64,000 nucleotides of DNA from Hyphomicrobiales bacterium (GCA_038251095.1 JBBSBQ010000018.1:159-64158), one strand, 5' to 3'. Counted from the first letter of the stretch, positions 2,919 through 14,043 are shown. The notes: generated by a model not told the origin, from the letters alone. A program made the numbers and translations.

Positions 2919-3638
2919 TTAATGTCCGGAGGCTTTCGCCCTGGCCTCCTCAAAGGAGAGCTTGAGTTCAGCGGAACCTGGATCGAGTTTCCATGCCCTA
3001 CCAAAGGCTGCAGCAGCCTGTTCATAGCGCTCCGTATGAAAATAGGACCACCCGAGCATGCGCCATCCCTCAATATCCTGCGGCATGGTCTCGAGCCGAG
3101 TCGCCAGCCGTTCGGTCATCGCGTTCACATCGGGCAGGAGCTCGCCGACTGCCGCCTTGGACGGCGGATTTTCAGAGCCAATGGAACGCGCGTAATCCGC
3201 AAGCCGCGCAAGCATTTCACCATCGGGCTCCGAGAACGCGATTGCATCCTGTGAGCCTATTGCCTCCGGCGCACTCCTGTCATAAGAAACAGCCGCGCCG
3301 ATGCCTGACACAAGCAGGAAGGTCGCGGAAACGAGCAATAGTCTTTGCAGGTGGCCTTGAATGCCTTTGCCGGATCCCCAGTGCGGTGACGGCAAGCGGG
3401 AGAGGAGAGCAAGCCGCGCTGCGTCTGCTTCCGCGTCGGTGAGTTCTCCACTCTTTAGCCGCGCGCCGATATCTTCCAGAGAAGCTCGGTAGTTCTCCAA
3501 GTCGCGCTGCTTCCGCAAGCCCCTTGTCCCCATCAGAAAATGCAGCATAACTGGTATTGCCAAGGCAACAAAAAGCCAACCAAAAAAGTCAAAGACATCT
3601 TCCCCTCCCAGACTTCCAATGAAACTGTTCCTTCTCAA
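2919..3638 (-). CDS. CcmI/CycH-like cytochrome c maturation chaperone (two TM helices plus TPR)
   Basis: Two N-terminal TM helices flank a charged loop (YRASLEDIGARLKSGELTDAEADAARLALLSRL). A TPR-like module follows (MTERLATRLETMPQDIEGWRMLGWSY). The TTG start overlaps the upstream stop (TTGA). Confidence 0.6.
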   Translation of the reverse strand: MRRNSFIGSLGGEDVFDFFGWLFVALAIPVMLHFLMGTRGLRKQRDLENYRASLEDIGARLKSGELTDAEADAARLALLSRLPSPHWGSGKGIQGHLQRLLLVSATFLLVSGIGAAVSYDRSAPEAIGSQDAIAFSEPDGEMLARLADYARSIGSENPPSKAAVGELLPDVNAMTERLATRLETMPQDIEGWRMLGWSYFHTERYEQAAAAFGRAWKLDPGSAELKLSFEEARAKASGH

Positions 3639-5299
3639 AACTTTCTGCGAAGCTCCGCGCGGATGCCGAAGTTGTCCTCCTCGCCTTCGAGGATCTGAAA
3701 TGTCGCATCGGCGCGGAACAGCCAGGCCCGGTCGATCGGGACTTGATATCGGGCGCCGAAACCGTATTGCGCGTCCCCGGCGCCAATCCCGTCATCATCG
3801 AAGGCCTGCACCATGGCCATTTCGAAAACGAGTTGCTCGTCCAGATCGAAGAGATACTGCAAACCAATGGCGCCGCCCCAGGCATTGGAGCCGCTGTCGT
3901 CAAGTTTCGGGTAGCCGGTCAGGGCATCAGTTTCGAAGTTGATGCCGACGTTTTTCAGAATGCCCGCGCCATTGCCGTCGACCAGGGGCTGAGGGTTGCC
4001 AAAGCCGACGAAGAAGTTGGCATAGGGCAGCAGCGTGCTGGGCAAGCGTGTGATCAGGCTGTTTTCCGAAACGATTGCAAGCCCATCGTCATCGCCTTGC
4101 GGGTCTTCCCCGAAGTTTGCGAACACGCGGGTCGAGTTTGAAATTGTGTTGGAATAGCGCCGCGTGTAGGCACCTGTCAGGAAGTGTGTCAAAAGTCCCT
4201 CTTGATCGTCGCGGCCATCGATCAGCCCGTAGCCCGTCTCAATATAGCCACTGAAAGCATCGACGAAGGCGGTAGCGCCGAAAAGATTGGAGTTGTTGTT
4301 GTCGTCTCCGTCAGCTCCGATAATTCCGGCATTGTCGACATCATTGAATGCGGCGAACAGTGTGACGTCGAAATTTGCAAGGCCAAACGCCTGCGAATTC
4401 TTTGCCGGAAAAGACACCGCACCACCAAGTATCGCGTCGTTGGCCCAAATGCCGTTCTGCAGGAACAGTGGGAAGAGACCAACTGTGAAAGGCAAATCAA
4501 AGCTGGCCTCCCGCCCGGAAAATCCGGAATAGAGGGAGCCGAAATCACCCTCGAGAAACAACGTCTGCGGCTCGGGATCAAACTCGAAGTTTTCCTTCCC
4601 GTCGCCATCACTGCCACCGAATTCGAAGCGGGTGAATTGATTGTTCTTTTGAAGCGGCGTGAAGAAAGCGTGGATGCGTTCCGTGCCGGTGATCTTGAAG
4701 TCGACGTCGAGGTTCAGCCGCGTCGCGACCTGGGCAATGTCCTTGCCGTTGTTCTTGTTGTAGGCGAGCGCTGTCCGCCAGTCGCCGTAGATGGCAAGCC
4801 CCGGGAGCAGCGGATTTTTTTTGCCCAGCACGGTGCTGCTCTCGTCGTATGCACCGGACGTATATTGCTGGCGGCCCAGCTCAAGCAGCGGGCGTGGTGG
4901 ATCGACCGGTGTTTTGGCGCCATAAACATCGACCTGCCCCTGGGAATTGTAGCTGGTGTCGTACTGCGGGTCGGAGCGGAAAAGATCGCCCTTGCCGTCC
5001 TCGTTGCTGCCGATGTTTTCCCCTGCGCCTGTGGAACCGTCGTCAGACCTTTTTTCGGCACTTGCTTCTGCTTGCTGCGTATCGGCATGATTTTCGGGCG
5101 GGAAGAGTGATTCGCTGGATCTGAAAAGCGCTTGCCACACCCGAACCAATACGTTTCCCTCTTTGGTCTCGCTGCTGCTTGTGCCTGTCGCGGCTTCCGC
5201 CCTGGTATCGGACATCACAAGGCAACCGCAGGTCGCCATTACGGCTATGGCGGTCGATGCCCTGACAAGGTACGCATTACTCAACATACAAAACTCCAA
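3635..5299 (-). CDS. predicted outer-membrane beta-barrel protein (porin-like), function unknown
   Basis: Signal peptide, an acidic/Ser-Gly-rich N-terminal stretch, then long alternating amphipathic sequence. The C-terminus ...FGIRAELRRKF ends in Phe, a typical OMP beta-signal. Confidence 0.6.
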   Translation of the reverse strand: MEFCMLSNAYLVRASTAIAVMATCGCLVMSDTRAEAATGTSSSETKEGNVLVRVWQALFRSSESLFPPENHADTQQAEASAEKRSDDGSTGAGENIGSNEDGKGDLFRSDPQYDTSYNSQGQVDVYGAKTPVDPPRPLLELGRQQYTSGAYDESSTVLGKKNPLLPGLAIYGDWRTALAYNKNNGKDIAQVATRLNLDVDFKITGTERIHAFFTPLQKNNQFTRFEFGGSDGDGKENFEFDPEPQTLFLEGDFGSLYSGFSGREASFDLPFTVGLFPLFLQNGIWANDAILGGAVSFPAKNSQAFGLANFDVTLFAAFNDVDNAGIIGADGDDNNNSNLFGATAFVDAFSGYIETGYGLIDGRDDQEGLLTHFLTGAYTRRYSNTISNSTRVFANFGEDPQGDDDGLAIVSENSLITRLPSTLLPYANFFVGFGNPQPLVDGNGAGILKNVGINFETDALTGYPKLDDSGSNAWGGAIGLQYLFDLDEQLVFEMAMVQAFDDDGIGAGDAQYGFGARYQVPIDRAWLFRADATFQILEGEEDNFGIRAELRRKF

Positions 5300-5356: not shown

Positions 5357-7177
5357 CTAATCCTTCACTTCAAGTTCCACCGCAAAGGCGTGGAAGTTCA
5401 TGATCCGCTCATTCATGCTTTGCTGCATGTCCTCGGTGGCTCGCACGAAACGCATGAAGTAGATCGGCTCGGACCGGCTCCGCATGCGGAAGGCGAGGCG
5501 GTACTTTCCCGGCTTGGTGATCAGTTTGCCCGGCACCTTGTACTTGGCAACCTTCTCGCCCAGCGGCGGCAGCGAGTGGTTTTCCATGCGCACCAGCGGT
5601 GGATGGTTGAGAACGGTCGTCGGAATCCCCGGTGGGCGCAGATGCGGCAGGGGATCGACGTCGAAATTCACCGGCAGATACATCTCGCGGTCCGTGCCCT
5701 TGACGTTGGTTGTCAGGAACTTTGTCTGGAAGTGCACCAACTGCTGGTCCGTTTTGATTTTGCCGGCCGCGACATCCAGGCTGTGCAGATCGGCCATGTC
5801 GCCATGACTGTCGATATAGCCCGACTCCCAGATGTTCTTGCCGGTGGGATCGATGAGGGCGACATTCACCCAGAGCTGCGGCTGCGCGCCCAGTGATCCG
5901 GACGGCAGGTTATGGCCCGGATTGGTGTTCTTGATCTTGTAGGAGAACGCTAGATCCTTGCCCACCTTCGGTTCACCCAAGATGTCGGGGCCGTCAACGG
6001 AACTGCCGTTTTCCAGAAGCTGCTGCCGGAGCTTGTCGCGCCCGTCTAGCTTCGCGAGGTTCTCGTCGATGAGTAGCCGAGCCTCTTCACGATCAAGCGG
6101 ATCGGCCCAGCGCTTGGGAAACTTGGCCTTGATCTTGCCGTCAGCGACTTTGTCCTCGAACACCGTCGTGCCCCAGCCGGCACGCCAGTCGAACCGCAGC
6201 CAATTCTTCATGCTGACGGATTGTGCCTTCGTATTGTGGGGGAAGATTCCGGGATGGGCGATTGAATAGCCTGGGCCCATGAACCTGTGGTTAGCATGCT
6301 TGCGTCCCGGATTTATTTTCTTGCCGCCCACCTCCGCCGAGGGTGCGGTCGCATAGCCTTTCGCCTTTCCTGGATCCTTGCCCATGTGGCAGTCCTGGCA
6401 GGTGACTCCGGCCTTGCGCGCCGGGCTGTCGCGATACTGCTCCCAGACGATCTCCAACTTGATTCCCAGATTGACGGCAACCTGGTGACAACTCACGCAG
6501 AATTCCGACTTGGTGATCTGGTCGTTTGAGATCATGCCCTTATGGATGTCGTTGCCCCGCCCGTCGGCGCTGGTCTTAACGGAATAGGTTTCCTTGTCGG
6601 CGAGAACGTCTTTGATCACGCTCTTTTGTCCGCTGCCGTAAACCGGCTCGTAAATCTTTCCCGGCTCGATCCGGCGCTCGCCGTTGACCTTGCCATATTG
6701 TTCGCTGACACGGTGGCAGGTTATGCAGGTCACGCCCTCGCGCGAGATCGGACTGTCCGCCCAAAGCGGCGTCTGGCGGGCCTCGCCGAGTTGGATGCCC
6801 ACCTGCTGGTGGCAGCGCACGCAGAAGGTACCCACCGTGCCTTGCGTCAGTTCTTGGAACTTCTGCTCGAATTTGTGGAACATGGGCGAGATCGACGAAT
6901 AGGCATGCTGCGATGAAGACCACTCTTCGTAAATCTGTTTATGGCACTCGCCGCATTTTTCAGCAGTGGGATAAAGGGAGAGCACGTCATCATTGACCGC
7001 GGCAACGGGAACTCCATTGCCGTCCACTGCGGCATCGGCAATGAAGGTTTGCTCGAAAACCGTGCTCATCAACAAAGCGCTCACGAACGCGCAGGAGAGC
7101 AATGAAATGCGGGATAATCTCTTCATTGGCGGCCTAATGGTCTTCAGAGTGGGCCGCCCCATTTTCAATTCGCTCAA
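5357..7177 (-). CDS. periplasmic pentahaem c-type cytochrome with a haem-free C-terminal domain of about 250 aa
   Basis: Signal peptide. Five CXXCH motifs: CGECH, CVRCH, CITCH, CVSCH, CQDCH. Confidence 0.8.
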   Translation of the reverse strand: MSELKMGRPTLKTIRPPMKRLSRISLLSCAFVSALLMSTVFEQTFIADAAVDGNGVPVAAVNDDVLSLYPTAEKCGECHKQIYEEWSSSQHAYSSISPMFHKFEQKFQELTQGTVGTFCVRCHQQVGIQLGEARQTPLWADSPISREGVTCITCHRVSEQYGKVNGERRIEPGKIYEPVYGSGQKSVIKDVLADKETYSVKTSADGRGNDIHKGMISNDQITKSEFCVSCHQVAVNLGIKLEIVWEQYRDSPARKAGVTCQDCHMGKDPGKAKGYATAPSAEVGGKKINPGRKHANHRFMGPGYSIAHPGIFPHNTKAQSVSMKNWLRFDWRAGWGTTVFEDKVADGKIKAKFPKRWADPLDREEARLLIDENLAKLDGRDKLRQQLLENGSSVDGPDILGEPKVGKDLAFSYKIKNTNPGHNLPSGSLGAQPQLWVNVALIDPTGKNIWESGYIDSHGDMADLHSLDVAAGKIKTDQQLVHFQTKFLTTNVKGTDREMYLPVNFDVDPLPHLRPPGIPTTVLNHPPLVRMENHSLPPLGEKVAKYKVPGKLITKPGKYRLAFRMRSRSEPIYFMRFVRATEDMQQSMNERIMNFHAFAVELEVKD

Positions 7178-7425: not shown

Positions 7426-8520
7426 ATGGCAATTCATCACCAGATAACCATCGATGGCCGAAGCTTTTTGGCTCCCGATGGCCAGTTGCTGTTGGACGCT
7501 GCCTTGAGCAACGGCATCGAGCTGCCACACGACTGCCGTGCCGGCCACTGCGGTACCTGCTGCGTGCGGCTGATATCCGGTGAAGTGCAAGGCGGCGAAG
7601 GCGCGGAACCGGGCATCGTGCATGCCTGTCAGTTCCGGATCGCCGGCGCCGCGGACATTGCGACTGAACAGCAATCGCGAGTTCGCTGTGTTGACGGCGT
7701 GGTGCATTCATTGCGCCGCCTGTCATCTGAAGTGATGGAGGTCGAAATCAGGATGGAGCAGGCCCTGCCCTATCTTGCTGGGCAATATGCCCAAGTGCGC
7801 TTCAGCGGCTATCCGAGCCGTCCCTTCAGTATTACTCATCCCTTGCGCACCTCGCAAAAGAATCAGAATGGCCGCTCGGTCTGGTTCCATGTCCGGCGCA
7901 TGCGGGATGGGCGCGTCTCCCCGTCGCTTGGAAAGCGAATCAGGCCGGGCCATCGGGTGAAGCTGACCGGCCCTTATGGTTCGGCGCATTTCCGGCCCAA
8001 TCTGCAAAGCCCCTTGATTCTCGTCGCCACCCACACCGGTTTTGCCCCGATCTGGTCTATCGCCGTTGCGGCGCTGCGGGAGAATCCGGAACGCGACATG
8101 ATGATTATCGCCGGTGGCCGTACCCTTGAGTCACTCTATATGTGGCCGGCTCTCGCGCGGCTTGCGACCTTTCCCAATGTCCATGTCGTGCCCGTATGCA
8201 GCACGCCACAGACTTTGATCCAGGCAGTGCAGCGCGGCCGGCCAACCGACTATCTGCCACCCCTGCTGCCGAGCGACGTGCTTTACGCATGCGGCGCTCC
8301 GGGTATGGTCGATGCGATTAAGGAAGTCGCTGCGCGCATTGGCGCGGTTTGCTATGCGGATCCGTTTCTGCCGACCACCGATGACAAAGTCGAAGAAACC
8401 GTTCTGGGCCGCACGACCAAGTGGCTTTCTGCCCTTACGCGGCGGACGGCGGGTTCGGCACAAGCTTATGGGATGGCTGAAGCAAGAGTAAGACGTGAAT
8501 ATCGCTCTCAAAGTGCATAG
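7426..8520 (+). CDS. 2Fe-2S ferredoxin / FNR-family FAD-NAD(P)H oxidoreductase fusion
   Basis: N-terminal plant-type ferredoxin motif CRAGHCGTCC...C. RPFSITHP (RxYS-like FAD site) and a THTGFAP NAD(P)-binding motif follow. The ATG at 7426 is preceded by AGGGGA; the track ORF starts earlier at 7360. Confidence 0.8.
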   Translation: MAIHHQITIDGRSFLAPDGQLLLDAALSNGIELPHDCRAGHCGTCCVRLISGEVQGGEGAEPGIVHACQFRIAGAADIATEQQSRVRCVDGVVHSLRRLSSEVMEVEIRMEQALPYLAGQYAQVRFSGYPSRPFSITHPLRTSQKNQNGRSVWFHVRRMRDGRVSPSLGKRIRPGHRVKLTGPYGSAHFRPNLQSPLILVATHTGFAPIWSIAVAALRENPERDMMIIAGGRTLESLYMWPALARLATFPNVHVVPVCSTPQTLIQAVQRGRPTDYLPPLLPSDVLYACGAPGMVDAIKEVAARIGAVCYADPFLPTTDDKVEETVLGRTTKWLSALTRRTAGSAQAYGMAEARVRREYRSQSA

Positions 8521-9559
8521 CTTTTGGCCAACCGGGTTCAGGTTCAGCATCCGGTTTTCCGTACTTTGTCTCTACGGTTGTTTAATGCTCCTCGGCTTTG
8601 CCGCGGACGGCGCGGTTGCGTCCGATCCGGCTAGGATCGTGGGCGCAAATGCTTGTGCCGAATGCCATAAGCAGGAAGCTGAGGCGTGGAAGGGTACGCA
8701 TCACTTCAAGACCTTCAGTGAAATGCCGCGCAAAGCCCCGGCCAAACAAATTTCGGAAAAGATGGGTCTGCGGCGCATCAAGGCGGAAAGCGTCTGCTTG
8801 AACTGCCATTTCACGGTGCAGCAGAAAAATAACAAGCCGGAAATCGTCTCCGGTATCTCCTGCGAATCCTGCCACGGCGCCGCCCGGGATTGGATCAAGG
8901 TGCACAGCGGGTTCAGCGGCAAGACGGCAAAGACCGAGACCAAGGCCGAGGAGGATGCCCGCTGGAAGCTCGCCGAATCAAAAGGGATGATCAGGCGGCA
9001 CTCGCTCTACCAGCTGGCGAAGAACTGCTACGGTTGCCATGTCGTGCCGCAAGAGGCTCTGGTGAACAAGGGTGGCCACAAGCCCGGAAGCGCTTTCGAG
9101 CTGGTGTCCTGGTCGCAAGGAGAAGTGCGGCACAACACCTGGTATTCCCAAGGCAAGGAAAATGTCGCCGCGAACGCCGCGCGCAAACGCATGCTCTATC
9201 TCGTCGGTCTTGGCGTCGAGCTTGAGACTGGTTTGCGCGCCATCGGAAAAGCGACCGCCAGAAAAACCTACGCCTTTGAAATGGCGAAACGCGTCGACCG
9301 GGCGCGCAAGGAACTCGCCGCCGCAGCGATTGCGGCGCCGGAGGTGCCGGAAATCGCTGAGATGGTCAAATTGGCGCATTCAGCCGGGCTGAGGCTGAAA
9401 AATAACCAGAAGCTGACGGCTGCTGCCGATGGCGTTTCCAAGCTCCTCGTGAACATCACCGCAAAGTATGACGGCAGCACCATGGCCGGGCTGGACGGCT
9501 TGGTTCCCAAATCTGACAAGTTCAAGGGCACGGCGAGAAAAGCGGGCGCAGTCGATTGA
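8495..9559 (+). CDS. periplasmic tetrahaem c-type cytochrome
   Basis: Hydrophobic N-terminus. Four CXXCH motifs: CAECH, CLNCH, CESCH, CYGCH. The start is uncertain (GTG 8495 or ATG 8585). Confidence 0.75.
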   Translation: MNIALKVHSFWPTGFRFSIRFSVLCLYGCLMLLGFAADGAVASDPARIVGANACAECHKQEAEAWKGTHHFKTFSEMPRKAPAKQISEKMGLRRIKAESVCLNCHFTVQQKNNKPEIVSGISCESCHGAARDWIKVHSGFSGKTAKTETKAEEDARWKLAESKGMIRRHSLYQLAKNCYGCHVVPQEALVNKGGHKPGSAFELVSWSQGEVRHNTWYSQGKENVAANAARKRMLYLVGLGVELETGLRAIGKATARKTYAFEMAKRVDRARKELAAAAIAAPEVPEIAEMVKLAHSAGLRLKNNQKLTAAADGVSKLLVNITAKYDGSTMAGLDGLVPKSDKFKGTARKAGAVD

Positions 9560-9593
9560 AAAACCACTGCAAGGGTAATGCGCGGAGGACAGC

Positions 9594-10487
9594 GTGAGGG
9601 CGCGAGCGTCTGATGCCTTAATCGGCGGGAGCGGTCTGGCCGTGGCGGGATATGTCATCAACCGCGCAGTCCTCGGCCTTTTGATTGCGGCTCTATCTGG
9701 CGGCCTGTTCTGGCTCGTCTGGATCTACGGCAATGGGCTCCGTGATCCCCGCTACCTCGATGGCTGGGTGCTGGCCGGCGGCATGGCCCTGCAGGTCTGC
9801 TTTCACATCGTCAAAACCTTTAGCGTGTCGCCGAAATCGGCCACGCGCTGGCGGAAGATTCATATTTTTGCCGGCTATCTGGTGATCGCCGCCTTCATTT
9901 CGCATTCGGATTTCACGCTGCCAGACAGCGGCTTCGAATGGGCCCTGTGGACTGGGTTTGTGCTGGTGACGCTGAGCGGCATCCTCGGCACCTATCTTGC
10001 CTGGTCGCAACGGGCGAAGAGCCGGGTCGATGAAGGCATCAGCTATGACCGCATCCCGGCGCTGCGCGCCGAGCTGGAGATTGCGTTTCTCCGCGCCATC
10101 GCCGAGACCGATCCGTCCGCCGCTGCGATCGATCTGCCGGGGCTGCCCCACGACGCCTGGATTACCGAACTCTACTCCACCCATCTCGGCGACTTCTTCC
10201 AGGGGCCGCGGAATTTCACCGCCCATCTCATCGGCTCGCAACGCCCGCTCAAACGGCTGACCGGCGCAATCGACAACCTGTCACGCTATGTCGATCAGCC
10301 GCGCCAGGCGAAGCTTGCCTATATCAAGACCTTGGTGGCGGAAAAAGACCGGCTCGATTTCGCCCGCGTCTCTCTCGGGCTTACCAGGGGTTGGCTGTTC
10401 GTGCACGTGCCGGTCACCTATGCACTGATCGTGTTGACGGTGCTGCACGTGCTCGTCGTCTACGCCTTTTCATCGGGTGTCTGGTGA
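9594..10487 (+). CDS. integral membrane protein with about five TM helices and conserved-looking intramembrane His residues; possible b-type cytochrome
   Basis: Hydrophobic segments containing His: CFHIV, KIHIFAGY, FISHS, FVHVPV, VLHVLV. A soluble loop of about 115 aa precedes the last helix. The b-haem assignment is inference only. Confidence 0.55.
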   Translation: MRARASDALIGGSGLAVAGYVINRAVLGLLIAALSGGLFWLVWIYGNGLRDPRYLDGWVLAGGMALQVCFHIVKTFSVSPKSATRWRKIHIFAGYLVIAAFISHSDFTLPDSGFEWALWTGFVLVTLSGILGTYLAWSQRAKSRVDEGISYDRIPALRAELEIAFLRAIAETDPSAAAIDLPGLPHDAWITELYSTHLGDFFQGPRNFTAHLIGSQRPLKRLTGAIDNLSRYVDQPRQAKLAYIKTLVAEKDRLDFARVSLGLTRGWLFVHVPVTYALIVLTVLHVLVVYAFSSGVW

Positions 10488-12958
10488 TGGCTTCCCGGCG
10501 CGACCAACTTACTGTGCTGCTGGCGCTCGTAACCGCCATCTGCTTGGGTTCGGCCATTTTTTTCTCCAACGGCACACAGTTGCTCATGCCGGGGCCGCTT
10601 ACGAGCGGGCACGCCGCGATCGAAAATTGCAACGCCTGCCATACCAAGAGCGGCAGCAACAAACTGAGCTGGCTCCACGGCCTTGTCGCCGCCGACCCGC
10701 TTGCCGACAGTAAGGCTTGCCTGACCTGCCACAAAATGCCGGCCACGGCCTTCAACCCGCACGGGGCGGCAGCCGAAGTGCTGGAGCAAAGCACCAGGCG
10801 GCTGACCAGGATCGCTGCGGGTACGACAGCGCCGCGATCAGCGGTCGCGCAGAGCATCGCATTCCCGATGAAAGATGTCATCGCGGGCGGCCTCTATTGC
10901 GCCACCTGCCATCAGGAGCATCAGGGCGCGAGCTTCAACCTGCACAAAATTTCTAGCGAGAAATGCCGCTCGTGCCACGTTGTGAAGTTCGACAGCTTTG
11001 ACGGCGATCACCCGGCCTTCGAAAACTATCCGTTCAAGCGGCGGACGCGAATTATCTACGATCATGCCAGCCATTCCGGCAAGTACTACCCGGACTTGGC
11101 AAAAAAGGATCCAGCAACGCGCACCCCGGCAACCTGCTCGGCCTGTCACAACAGTAACAACGACAGGCGGGTCATGGCCGTGGCGCCTTTCGATCAGATC
11201 TGCGCCTCTTGCCATCTCGGCCAGATCATCGGCAAAGAGCGGGTCAGCGGCCCCAAAGGCATTGCCTTCCTCACTCTGCCAGGCCTCGATCTGGAAACGC
11301 TGAAGAAGAAAAATGCCTCTATCGGGGAATGGCCGGACGGGTCCGATGCCGCGCTGACGCCATTTATGAAGCTGATCATGAACCGGAATGAAAAAGGCCG
11401 CGGGCTGGTCAAGGCGGTGGACGGCCTGAACCTCCTGGATCTTGCCACTGCGAGCGACAGTCAGATCAAGGCGGTGACGGATCTGGCGTGGGAGATCAAA
11501 GGGCTGTTCCATGCACTGATCAAGGGAAAGGCATCAGACGTGCTGGGCAATCTCAGTGCTGGCGACGGGGCGAAACTGAATACGGCTCTCATTTCCGATC
11601 TGACCGCAGGCATTCCCCGTGATGCCGTCATCGGCGCTCAGCAGGAGTGGCTCCCCAATCTCGCAGCGGAAATGACCGGTGGCCCGGTTACGCTTCCCGA
11701 AGCGCCGTCCGGTTCCAATGCGGTTCAGGCAGTTCCGATCCCCTCGCCACAGGAACCGCAGAGTGCGGCGGCAGTCGAAACCAATTCCTCCGACAGCGAG
11801 CCCCCCGAAACTGAGTCCGTTGGCACAGAACCTGCCGGTGCTGAGAAAACAGTCTGCGCCGATGAACCACCTCGCGCCGAGAATATAGCCGCGACGGATG
11901 AAGTGGCGCCGGATTCTGAAGACGAGCCTGAGACCGGGGAGAGTGGAGAAACACTCAGCGCCGAAGAACAACTGGCGGCGGTCAAGGGACGCCTGCCTCT
12001 GCCCAACGGAACCCCGCGCGCCATCAAGACCCGCATCGAGAACGCCAGGAAGAAAAAGCCGCATGAAGAAGCGGAGGCCAAGGCCGAGGGCGCAAAGGTA
12101 GTGCCCTGCACCGACGAACAGCCGCGCCCCGATGCGGCCGGAGAAACCGAAGCTGCTGAGGCCAACGCCAATGAAGGCACCGAAGCGCCCTCCGCCGGGG
12201 GACAGGCTGCCGCCGATACGACAGAGCAATTCGATGATCTGCTCTTCCCCACCGGGTCTGAGAAAGCAGGCCGGACTGAAGAAGCGGATCCCGCTTCAAA
12301 AACCGAAGGCAAGACGCCAGCCGACGCGCTGCCGGAGGCAAACACTGCGCCGCCTGCCCCACAAGTCCAGGCGGCTCCCACGACCGGCATCGAAAGCGAC
12401 GTGGATCCGGAGACCTGGGCTGAATATGGCGGCTGGTATCGGCAGGACTACACGCTTTATTACCGCCCCACCGGCCACAAGGACAAGTTCGTCCAGTCCT
12501 GGCTCGTTCTGACCTGGCCGCAAGCGCCAACGGGCGGCACGAGCCCGGCAGCGGCGGTCTTCGATTACCTCATCGGCAAGGACGCGCAGGGCTCATGCAC
12601 AAAATGCCACAGCGTTGACGATATCCGGGGCAAAGGGCGGGTGGTCAATTTCTCCCCGGCCTCGGTCGCGAACAAACATGGGCGGTTCACGCATTTCATC
12701 CACGAGCCGCATATGGGCATCATGGATAACCGCGGTTGTCTTACCTGCCATGACCTTGAAAGGAACCGCCCCTATCTCAAGAGTTACGAGCAAGGCAACG
12801 CATGGAAATTTACAGCCAACTTCGGCGCAGTGAAGAAGGAGCTCTGCCAGGGCTGCCACACCAGCGGCGTGGCCCGCCAAGACTGCTTGCTGTGCCACAA
12901 ATATCATGTGAACGGCGTGGCCACGCCTGTCATGAACACAAAAATTCCGGCTCAATAG
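10487..12958 (+). CDS. decahaem c-type cytochrome with a long acidic low-complexity linker
   Basis: Ten CXXCH motifs, six N-terminal (CNACH, CLTCH, CATCH, CRSCH, CSACH, CASCH) and four C-terminal (CTKCH, CLTCH, CQGCH, CLLCH). The ATG at 10487 overlaps the upstream TGA (TGATG). It is followed by a TM/signal segment. Confidence 0.8.
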   Translation: MASRRDQLTVLLALVTAICLGSAIFFSNGTQLLMPGPLTSGHAAIENCNACHTKSGSNKLSWLHGLVAADPLADSKACLTCHKMPATAFNPHGAAAEVLEQSTRRLTRIAAGTTAPRSAVAQSIAFPMKDVIAGGLYCATCHQEHQGASFNLHKISSEKCRSCHVVKFDSFDGDHPAFENYPFKRRTRIIYDHASHSGKYYPDLAKKDPATRTPATCSACHNSNNDRRVMAVAPFDQICASCHLGQIIGKERVSGPKGIAFLTLPGLDLETLKKKNASIGEWPDGSDAALTPFMKLIMNRNEKGRGLVKAVDGLNLLDLATASDSQIKAVTDLAWEIKGLFHALIKGKASDVLGNLSAGDGAKLNTALISDLTAGIPRDAVIGAQQEWLPNLAAEMTGGPVTLPEAPSGSNAVQAVPIPSPQEPQSAAAVETNSSDSEPPETESVGTEPAGAEKTVCADEPPRAENIAATDEVAPDSEDEPETGESGETLSAEEQLAAVKGRLPLPNGTPRAIKTRIENARKKKPHEEAEAKAEGAKVVPCTDEQPRPDAAGETEAAEANANEGTEAPSAGGQAAADTTEQFDDLLFPTGSEKAGRTEEADPASKTEGKTPADALPEANTAPPAPQVQAAPTTGIESDVDPETWAEYGGWYRQDYTLYYRPTGHKDKFVQSWLVLTWPQAPTGGTSPAAAVFDYLIGKDAQGSCTKCHSVDDIRGKGRVVNFSPASVANKHGRFTHFIHEPHMGIMDNRGCLTCHDLERNRPYLKSYEQGNAWKFTANFGAVKKELCQGCHTSGVARQDCLLCHKYHVNGVATPVMNTKIPAQ

Positions 12959-13167
12959 CCGCGCGCCCAATCAGCAAATCGCGGTGGATGCAGACCGCTG
13001 CGAACCTGCTTTTGTATCCAATTCCCTGATAACCGGAAAAATAAAGCGGAAGGCATCAGGCATCGAGATACCCATTATGCGCAATTCAGCCCCAGAGCGT
13101 GCGGGCTCACAAGTATTTTGCACGCTTCTCGCGCCAGAAAATAATTCCAGTTAGCAGGAATAAATGA

Positions 13168-13183
13168 CTGGCGGAGAGGGAGG
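13168..13183. repeat. 16-nt exact copy of the 3' end of tRNA-Ser(CGA) (CTGGCGGAGAGGGAGG); att-like island boundary
   Basis: Identical to 35653-35668 in the same orientation. A further 12-14 nt or so are partly similar to the T-arm. Confidence 0.6.
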
Positions 13184-13598
13184 CCTTAGAATTTCCCAAT
13201 CATCTATATGATATTACAGAATTTTTGCGACGCAACTGGAGGTTCATCCTAGCATTCATCCTAGTTTCGGCGCTGGCTCGTGGCAATCATTGGCGGACGT
13301 CAACGTTCGTTTATGCAGGATAAAGTGGCCCTACATTCGTAGATTGCTCTCTGTTCAAATATATGTTGCACCTGGTGAAGCCGTTGCCCTTTGAGCCTTA
13401 ACTGCCTTCAGCTTCAAGCCTGATTGGTCCGATCGTGTGAACAAAGCAGACATCGTGTGAGGATCGCCTGATTTCCGTTTTTGACCCAGAGCGGACATTC
13501 ATTAGCCATATGCCCTCTCTCAAGAGTTAAGTTCAGAGGTACTTGTTCAGGATTTAGATTATTTGGTTGCGACTTTCAGCCAACCAGAAGGATTCATT

Positions 13599-13994
13599 CT
13601 AATCCGCTTCTAAAATCGCGCGCACGTCGCTTTCTCGGAATGGCTTATCAAGTACACCTATGAGCCGTAAATCAAATCGCTTGGCAAATTGCTCCGCTCC
13701 CTTGAGAGCATCAATCTTCGCGCCGCTCATCAAGACAATCGAGGATTTTATCTGATGACTGAACAAAAAGTCTAGAACCTGCAGGCCGTCCATCTCGGGC
13801 ATGTTCATATCGATGAAGATTATGTCAGACTCTGTCATATCATCAAGGTGCGCGGATTTGGCCCGCGTTGTGGTCAATACCTTGTAACCAAAATTACTAA
13901 GCATTCGAGCCATTAACAGACAGAAAGCCTCCTCGTCATCAATGACGAGCACCTTTCGGGCGGTCATCAATTTTGGGAATTTCTGTAACATCAT
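13599..13994 (-). CDS. response-regulator receiver domain, probably the second REC of the upstream hybrid kinase
   Basis: VLVIDDEE...IIFIDMNMPEMDG...VLMSG...LDKPF. The ORF's upstream extension encodes the missing end of the preceding REC domain. Confidence 0.7.
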   Translation of the reverse strand: MMLQKFPKLMTARKVLVIDDEEAFCLLMARMLSNFGYKVLTTTRAKSAHLDDMTESDIIFIDMNMPEMDGLQVLDFLFSHQIKSSIVLMSGAKIDALKGAEQFAKRFDLRLIGVLDKPFRESDVRAILEAD

Positions 13995-14043
13995 TGGAAA
14001 TTTATCTTTGCTCAAAGCGGTCCCATCATTGGCGTCGAGGACT

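Follow-up and report, generated by a model that had tools for sequence, protein, structure and literature searches.

A reductase linked to a probable di-haem membrane cytochrome in a PCC4 gene cluster of Hyphomicrobiales: a possible two-component, NOX-like outward electron conduit

Does a soluble reductase encoded among multihaem cytochromes hand its electrons to a membrane protein of the same operon, and through it to the periplasm? The question is raised by a 64,000-nucleotide stretch of DNA from a Hyphomicrobiales bacterium (GCA_038251095.1 JBBSBQ010000018.1:159-64158), hereafter the window, within which all coordinates are counted. A gene for a cytoplasmic reductase with 2Fe-2S, FAD and NAD(P)H-binding domains opens a plus-strand operon of four genes, extending from the ATG at 7426 to a terminator-like hairpin at 12979-13003. 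As had been stated in an earlier reading of the same DNA (the original prediction), the other products of this operon are haem cytochromes and one membrane protein, here termed the inner-membrane protein (IMP; 9594-10487) following the usage introduced for the porin-cytochrome cluster PCC4. The evidence presented below is consistent with a two-component NOX-like conduit that would run outward from the reductase through IMP to the periplasmic cytochromes, a reading that we regard as the most likely one, with chances about even. We infer haem binding by IMP, the identity of its docking partner, the outward direction of flow and its independence of quinones.

The strongest evidence concerns IMP itself. 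Its AlphaFold2 (AF2) model (predicted local distance difference test, pLDDT, 90.5; predicted template modelling score, pTM, 0.83) contains five transmembrane (TM) helices, in agreement with the hydrophobic segments at approximately 22-46, 55-75, 86-108, 113-137 and 265-293, and an extramembrane domain of about 125 residues (~138-264) comprising four helices between TM4 and TM5. TM5 is the end of a single 59-residue helix, and the protein terminates four residues beyond it. Histidines are placed within helix 2 (H71), helix 3 (H90 and H104) and helix 5 (H271 and H285), and those of the latter two helices belong to the motifs W86-x3-H90-x13-H104 and W267-x3-H271-x13-H285, which are accompanied by S128-G-x-x-G132 on TM4. 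A full-library HMMER search recovered 661 relatives of IMP, and conservation was assessed in alignments of 118-122 of these, with identities to the query reaching down to ~25% and a mean column identity of 27%. In these alignments H90, H104, H271 and H285 are conserved at 99-100%; the two HX13H motifs are found in 122 of 122 relatives, both of them in the extended form WX3HX13H in 113 of the 122. Retention of both motifs at so low a mean column identity is far beyond chance. W86, W267, G129 and G132 are conserved at a level of at least 94%, and H211, K251, L254 and D255 of the extramembrane domain are conserved too. H71, on the other hand, shows no conservation among the relatives, 51% of which have asparagine in its place, and it is thereby ruled out as a haem ligand. 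Of the histidines in helices 2, 3 and 5 to which the original prediction had drawn attention, those of helices 3 and 5 thus prove to be conserved pairs whereas that of helix 2 falls away; the large loop that it described is present, but with a length of ~125 rather than 115 residues. Taken together, the conserved histidines give IMP the bis-histidine signature of a transmembrane cytochrome b with two haems.

The orientation of IMP is suggested by its domain fusions. Three cyclic nucleoside monophosphate (cNMP)-binding domains and a 4Fe-4S dicluster module are fused to its N-terminus in P0156, P0217 and P0276, and in P0201 and P0271-P0275 its C-terminus continues into multihaem cytochrome domains. 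Since domains that bind cNMP, like Fe-S domains without a signal peptide, reside in the cytoplasm, and cytochromes of the c type in the periplasm, the N-terminus and the ~125-residue domain of IMP should lie in the cytoplasm and its C-terminus on the outside. With five TM helices, this topology would make TM3 and TM5 parallel, both running from inside to outside. H90 would then meet H271 in the inner leaflet, and H104 would meet H285 in the outer one, as expected for two stacked bis-histidine haems, and the 14-residue spacing within each helix corresponds to ~21 Å along its axis, which matches the geometry of such a stack. The concern that the histidines might point to different faces is not borne out, so far as sequence goes. 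The same fusions support contacts of the cytoplasmic face of IMP with Fe-S proteins and of its periplasmic end with multihaem cytochromes. Separately, it may be noted that the fusions in P0271-P0275 may in part be gene-call artefacts arising from the overlap of the IMP and decahaem genes.

The second component, the reductase, displays the Pfam domains Fer2 (residues 8-71), FAD_binding_6 (96-188) and NAD_binding_1 (199-299). Across 42 orthologues the 2Fe-2S cysteines C37, C42, C45 and C68 are invariant or nearly so, and the same holds for the R-P-F-S motif for FAD, the G-P-Y-G, T-G-F-A-P and C-G motifs and the terminal C-Y-A-D-P-F. The N-terminus contains neither a hydrophobic nor a twin-arginine signal, and a ribosome-binding site, AGGGGA, is located 7-8 nucleotides 5' of the ATG at 7426; the domains and the N-terminus confirm that the protein is, as predicted, a 2Fe-2S-FAD-NAD(P)H reductase devoid of a signal peptide. 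Its best NCBIfam match is BenC (106.7 bits against a cut-off of 430), the nearest named enzymes being BenC, MmoC and AntC, and with scores far under every NCBIfam equivalog cut-off it does not rank as the equivalent of a named reductase. The class IB oxygenase reductases represented by these three enzymes have the same Fer2-FAD-NAD order and the same cofactor motifs. A partner oxygenase is expected for that class, whereas the cluster described here includes no oxygenase gene, the neighbours of the reductase being cytochromes in 76 of 76 related loci. Service of a distant oxygenase is unlikely in view of this linkage, and the worry that the reductase might belong to an unrelated oxygenase is turned into a point in favour of the conduit, insofar as gene order and sequence can speak to it. 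A further difference from ordinary oxygenase reductases, which lack it, is a conserved C-terminal tail of ~50 residues that follows C-Y-A-D-P-F in the 42 orthologues and could be a docking or membrane-association element. In the tail (window 8360-8520) a T-D-D-x-V-E-E...W-L stretch is joined, through a linker that varies in length, to a conserved terminal A-E-A-R-V-R; the final codons of the tail coincide with the start of the next gene, and this overlap may contribute to its conservation.

The genetic setting of the pair has a published counterpart. According to the main text of He, Barco, Emerson & Roden (2017, Front Microbiol 8:1584; PMC5566968), PCC4 was defined from genomes as a cluster of a porin, 4-, 5- and 10-haem cytochromes and a redox gene upstream of the tetrahaem gene, together with a five-helix IMP carrying SGXXG on TM4 and WX3HX13H on TM3 and TM5, which these authors compared with the ferric reductase domain (FRD) of FRE/NOX. 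The same text describes Subgroup I as exclusive to Hyphomicrobium and reports PCC4 from several other phyla, the hosts coming from Fe/Mn-cycling habitats; we found no role for the reductase in it. Searches for later literature on PCC4 found one passing mention besides this paper. Compared feature by feature, the window locus is a PCC4 cluster of Subgroup I: it encodes cytochromes with 4, 5 and 10 CXXCH motifs, a porin-like barrel and a five-TM IMP of ~300 residues with the characteristic motifs, has the redox gene upstream of the tetrahaem gene, lacks a Fer4_11 gene before IMP and shows the divergent orientation. Its host is Aestuariivirga-like, a new genus for a cluster that He et al. placed in Hyphomicrobium hosts. 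The proposed likeness to NOX/FRE is hence borne out in the histidine motifs but is less new than it had seemed, having already been drawn in 2017. What is new here is the evidence from conservation, fusions and linkage that connects an NAD(P)H/Fe-S input in the cytoplasm with the probable di-haem membrane protein.

The linkage of reductase and IMP reaches well beyond the window genome, as is supported by two sets of loci. The close set consists of 80 related loci from named genomes (64-88% identity), 76 of which reach far enough upstream, and the order reductase, tetrahaem, IMP, decahaem is retained in all 76. The distant set consists of ten representatives with IMPs 27-41% identical, six of them with enough context to judge, and despite rearrangement of the loci the cluster includes, in five of the six, a gene for a reductase that combines Fer2 with an FNR-type NAD-binding domain. 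In L082, L084, L085 and L087 Fer2 stands at the C-terminal end, a reversal of the domain order; the gene lies on the opposite strand beside the porin gene in L082, and its product has an added FHA domain in L084. A gene for a cNMP-binding 4Fe-4S protein is found directly upstream of IMP in L084, L085, L087, L096, L097, L098 and the contig with P0192, and is fused to IMP in L088. The window's own genome contains no orthologue of this protein, so that the 2Fe-2S cluster of the reductase is the sole cytoplasmic redox centre encoded by the cluster here. In Subgroup II the 4Fe-4S protein bears up to three cNMP-binding domains (L084:89-3745; L085:1970-7994; L087:6298-8001; P0156, P0217, P0276), FHA domains occur on both the 4Fe-4S protein and the reductase of L084, and a gene of the guanylate/adenylate cyclase family adjoins the cluster in L085. 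This domain content suggests that the electron conduit in Subgroup II may be gated by second messengers and phospho-threonine recognition.

On the outward reading, hydride from NAD(P)H would reduce the FAD of the soluble reductase, and single electrons would pass to the enzyme's own 2Fe-2S cluster, which would dock on the cytoplasmic face of IMP where the TM4-TM5 domain lies. Two b-haems held between helices 3 and 5, an inner one by H90 and H271 and an outer one by H104 and H285, would carry the electron across the membrane. On the periplasmic side the anchored decahaem and the soluble tetrahaem cytochromes would take up the electrons, which would travel onward to the pentahaem cytochrome and the barrel at the outer membrane. 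Export of this kind would dissipate the membrane potential, as in NOX, and the system would serve as a reductive or redox-balancing outlet rather than as an energy-conserving respiration.

In working principle the proposed chain resembles the FRD-type systems. For Fre-MsrQ of E. coli, NADH-driven reduction of an FRD-type haem protein has been reported, and quinones have been argued to be too oxidising to serve as the donor of MsrQ, a protein with one haem plus FMN (PMC12525009). Fre-MsrQ, NOX, FRE and STEAP resemble the window pair in having a cytoplasmic NAD(P)H flavoreductase, soluble or fused, and a bis-histidine haem b domain with its ligands on TM3 and TM5, the positions of the two invariant HX13H motifs of IMP; export of electrons to a periplasmic or extracellular acceptor, known from Fre-MsrQ and NOX, is what is proposed for the window pair too. 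The differences are likewise distinct. FRD proteins have six TM helices, whereas IMP has five and a ~125-residue cytoplasmic insert; Fre and NOX lack a 2Fe-2S domain of their own, unlike the window reductase; the acceptors would be multihaem c-type cytochromes, in contrast to the O2 of NOX or the MsrP of Fre-MsrQ; and the FAD/NADPH domain that is fused C-terminally in NOX proper corresponds here to a separate gene located two genes upstream.

Several results weigh against the NOX-like reading, beginning with the classification of IMP, which scores under every curated Pfam and NCBIfam threshold. The sub-threshold Pfam matches of its 122 relatives, a hint in favour of the reading, fall to DUF4405 (66), Ni_hydr_CYTB (41), Ferric_reduct (19) and DUF4079 (15), families of one di-haem cytochrome clan. 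The window IMP scores 12.1 bits with PF01292 (Ni_hydr_CYTB; cut-off 30.1), for which the 41 of 122 relatives are likewise sub-threshold, and it has no match to PF01794, which 19 of the 122 relatives match at E <= 1, the best of them (2.6e-4) still below the cut-off. Comparison by hhalign with the genome's own PF01794 protein gave a probability of 1.6% and aligned the TM5 W-x3-H...H stretch only, and that with the genome's own PF01292 protein was not significant. No solved structure stands out in the searches against known structures. Foldseek with the IMP model found nothing in the PDB at E <= 0.001, its top rows being the sensor bundles of TorS/McpS, and no meaningful match emerged when PDB sequences were searched with a profile built from the 122 aligned relatives. 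VIA-align fold searches returned mostly generic helical bundles; the only membrane redox proteins among their matches, further hints towards the reading but all within the noise for helical proteins, were CybB (5oc0; Z 8.4, root-mean-square deviation (rmsd) 3.3, 133 aligned), Dcytb (Z 7.1), SpNOX (8qt6; Z 6.9, rmsd 4.4, 129 aligned), STEAP4 (6hcy; Z 6.8, rmsd 4.7, 166 aligned) and STEAP1 (8ucd; Z 6.8). In the ESM Atlas, a shape search yielded only unnamed clusters and DUF2231 (TM 0.36/0.49), and a feature search yielded one cluster auto-named 'Ferric reductase like transmembrane component', which serves as a lead only. Judged from its motifs and profile matches, IMP is probably a distant, unclassified relative of the di-haem cytochrome superfamily and is not a member of PF01794.

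Co-folding of the two proteins had a modest outcome. IMP and the reductase, each with its own alignment, were modelled together with two haems and one 2Fe-2S cluster, and the pair scored 0.38 against 0.01 for the best of three controls; the runs share at least 60% of their contacts, and the partner has a pLDDT of at least 74. Among solved complexes 58 of 80 attained the mark used for such models, as did 2 of 110 mismatched pairs, a calibration that holds only roughly for the present setting of own alignments and riding ligands, and scores of 0.60 or less reached the mark in just 7 of the 80 solved complexes and in both of the passing mismatches. The co-fold that had been proposed as a check lends weak support to direct docking of the reductase on IMP. 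Among the points against the reading, no fusion of IMP to an FNR-type module, the true NOX architecture, appeared among the longer homologues, whose fusions were to multihaem cytochromes or to cNMP/4Fe-4S modules; this search is in itself weak evidence. In L097, moreover, the 4Fe-4S protein is present and a reductase gene is absent within 8 kb; the gene order is otherwise that of L087, with a 460-bp gap (4667-5129) between the porin and tetrahaem genes. In Subgroup II as a whole, the direct cytoplasmic partner of IMP is more likely to be the 4Fe-4S protein than the reductase. The sequence of IMP would also be compatible with a quinone site. Finally, we found in the literature no bench work on any PCC4 protein.

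The onward route from the periplasm to the outside is likewise less assured than the term porin-cytochrome would imply. The AF2 model of the barrel protein, which ends in Phe, is all-beta from about residue 139, its N-terminal ~115 residues being predicted as disordered, and Foldseek matches it to the 18-strand porins MOMP, AlgE and OprD/Occ (E 3e-13 to 1e-8). The 18-strand class is much smaller than the 26-strand barrel of MtrB, so that a wire to the outside formed by a cytochrome within the porin cannot be taken for granted, which again counts against the full conduit. Instead of enclosing a large cytochrome, the barrel may let in a small haem domain or soluble species, and the label 'porin-cytochrome complex' may not describe how it works.

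Among the alternatives, the one that fares best is the quinone-linked model of He et al. (2017), in whose main text IMP is quinone-active and electrons flow inward from an extracellular donor, Fe(II) (PMC5566968). A NAD(P)H-driven chain, if right, would depart from this model. On the quinone-linked model IMP would be a quinol- or quinone-active cytochrome b, functionally analogous to CymA or to the cytochromes b of bc1 or hydrogenases, that connects the periplasmic multihaem cytochromes with the quinone pool, for example while Fe(II) or Mn(II) is oxidised, and the reductase would be accessory or regulatory. We regard this as somewhat unlikely, though it is the proposal of the only paper on the cluster and much is in keeping with it: di-haem b proteins with the same histidine pattern (bc1 cytochrome b, Ni_hydr_CYTB) are quinone-active, sub-threshold Ni_hydr_CYTB matches occur among the IMP relatives, L097 does without a reductase gene and the hosts are reported from Fe/Mn-cycling habitats. 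It leaves unexplained, however, why the reductase is retained in 76 of 76 close and five of six distant, rearranged loci, and why a cytoplasmic 4Fe-4S module is fused to IMP. No quinone-site motif is known by which it could be tested, and for MsrQ, an FRD protein, the view that quinones act as the donor has been disputed (PMC12525009).

A very unlikely alternative, in our view, is inward uptake, in which a low-potential extracellular or periplasmic donor would feed the multihaem cytochromes and, through IMP, a cytoplasmic Fe-S/flavin centre that produces NAD(P)H. Its model would be the Tmc and Hmc complexes of sulfate reducers, which join periplasmic multihaem c-type cytochromes to a membrane cytochrome b and cytoplasmic Fe-S proteins and work inward. 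The architecture of PCC4 matches theirs, that of the Subgroup II clusters most closely, and enzymes of the FNR type are reversible. No sequence relation between TmcABCD/Hmc and the IMP cluster was detected; the Fe-S protein of Tmc/Hmc is HdrD-like, whereas that of Subgroup II is the cNMP-binding 4Fe-4S dicluster protein, and PCC4 has an FNR-type reductase and an outer-membrane barrel, unlike Tmc/Hmc. Outward flow is favoured on thermodynamic grounds: electrons moving inward from Fe(II)/Mn(II) to NAD(P)+ would have to overcome the redox gap as well as a membrane potential that is negative inside, and these donors should be far too oxidising to reduce NAD(P)+ without an input of energy, for which the cluster encodes no coupling device. 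The hosts, in addition, are mostly aerobic or denitrifying Hyphomicrobiales of the methylotroph type.

Of similarly low probability is the view that the reductase and IMP are co-regulated without exchanging electrons, for example in haem or iron handling during maturation of the 19 c-haems of the cluster alongside its CcmI/CycH-like gene; gene linkage by itself does not prove contact and the co-fold support for one is weak, but the occurrence of Fe-S modules fused to IMP speaks for a transfer of electrons at its cytoplasmic face, and no cytochrome c maturation system is known to use a Fer2-FNR reductase.

Should the NOX-like conduit prove to be right, its place among known routes would be unusual. 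The known extracellular electron transfer routes of Gram-negative bacteria (Mtr/CymA; ImcH, CbcL and CbcBA of Geobacter) start at the quinone pool, and a PCC4 chain that started at cytoplasmic NAD(P)H would constitute a different, non-energy-conserving entry point. It would also call for a new interpretation of such clusters in metagenomic data, in which they now count as markers of Fe(II) oxidation, and would provide a simple bacterial model of a two-component NOX-like system. The broadest form of the proposal, in which PCC4 as a whole is a quinone-independent, NAD(P)H-driven export line from the cytoplasm to the cell surface in aerobic or denitrifying Hyphomicrobiales, a trans-envelope bacterial NOX gated in Subgroup II by cyclic nucleotides and FHA signalling, is a distinctly unlikely extension on present evidence. 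Reduction of Fe(III), Mn(IV) or humics could be the output of such a line, and extracellular superoxide would be another possible output, one that might explain why Hyphomicrobium is found in association with deposits of Mn oxide.

Table 1. Features of the window locus, with window coordinates, strand and supporting evidence
Feature	Coordinates	Strand	Evidence
Fer2-FAD-NAD(P)H reductase, cytoplasmic, 364 aa	7426..8520	+	Pfam domains, cofactor motifs, ribosome-binding site
Tetrahaem cytochrome c, c554-like, periplasmic, 354 aa	8495..9559	+	4 CXXCH, signal-like N-terminus, PF13435 E 3.6e-17
IMP, 297 aa, 5 TM helices, probable di-haem cytochrome b	9594..10487	+	conservation, AF2 model, fusions
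Decahaem cytochrome c, 823 aa, N-terminal hydrophobic anchor	10487..12958	+	10 CXXCH (6 + 4)
Terminator-like hairpin, operon end	12979..13003	+	consensus scan alone
Pentahaem cytochrome c, divergent, part of PCC4	5357..7177	-	5 CXXCH, signal peptide, PF13435 and NapC/NirT-like matches
Outer-membrane beta-barrel, porin-like, part of PCC4	3635..5299	-	AF2 all-beta model, Foldseek
CcmI/CycH-like TPR protein	2919..3638	-	PF23914 TPR_CcmH_CycH E 9.5e-10, 39 bits, under curated cut-off 42

The features of the locus are collected in Table 1. Within the operon, the start of the tetrahaem gene overlaps the end of the reductase gene by 26 nucleotides, an overlap that is retained in orthologous loci, and the ATG of the decahaem gene shares a single base with the TGA stop of IMP; these overlaps suggest co-translation of reductase with tetrahaem cytochrome and of IMP with decahaem cytochrome. 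The decahaem protein has six of its CXXCH motifs by residue 243 and the other four after residue 704, the two groups being separated by a long linker of acidic, low-complexity sequence. Synteny of the pentahaem gene is kept in related loci, and the CcmI-like gene is syntenic in most of them.

The cluster has a patchy phyletic distribution, with 29 of the 301 genomes sampled from the order carrying it. Of six further genomes from the same genus just one has IMP, whereas in one other genus all five of five have it; named relatives of IMP belong to Aestuariivirga and Hyphomicrobiaceae, and Hyphomicrobium zavarzinii ATCC 27496 (L024) is among the carriers of the cluster. Acquisition of the entire cluster by horizontal transfer would be in keeping with this pattern. 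Immediately 3' of the operon (13001-14000) the G+C content falls to 0.46, compared with ~0.58-0.62 inside it.

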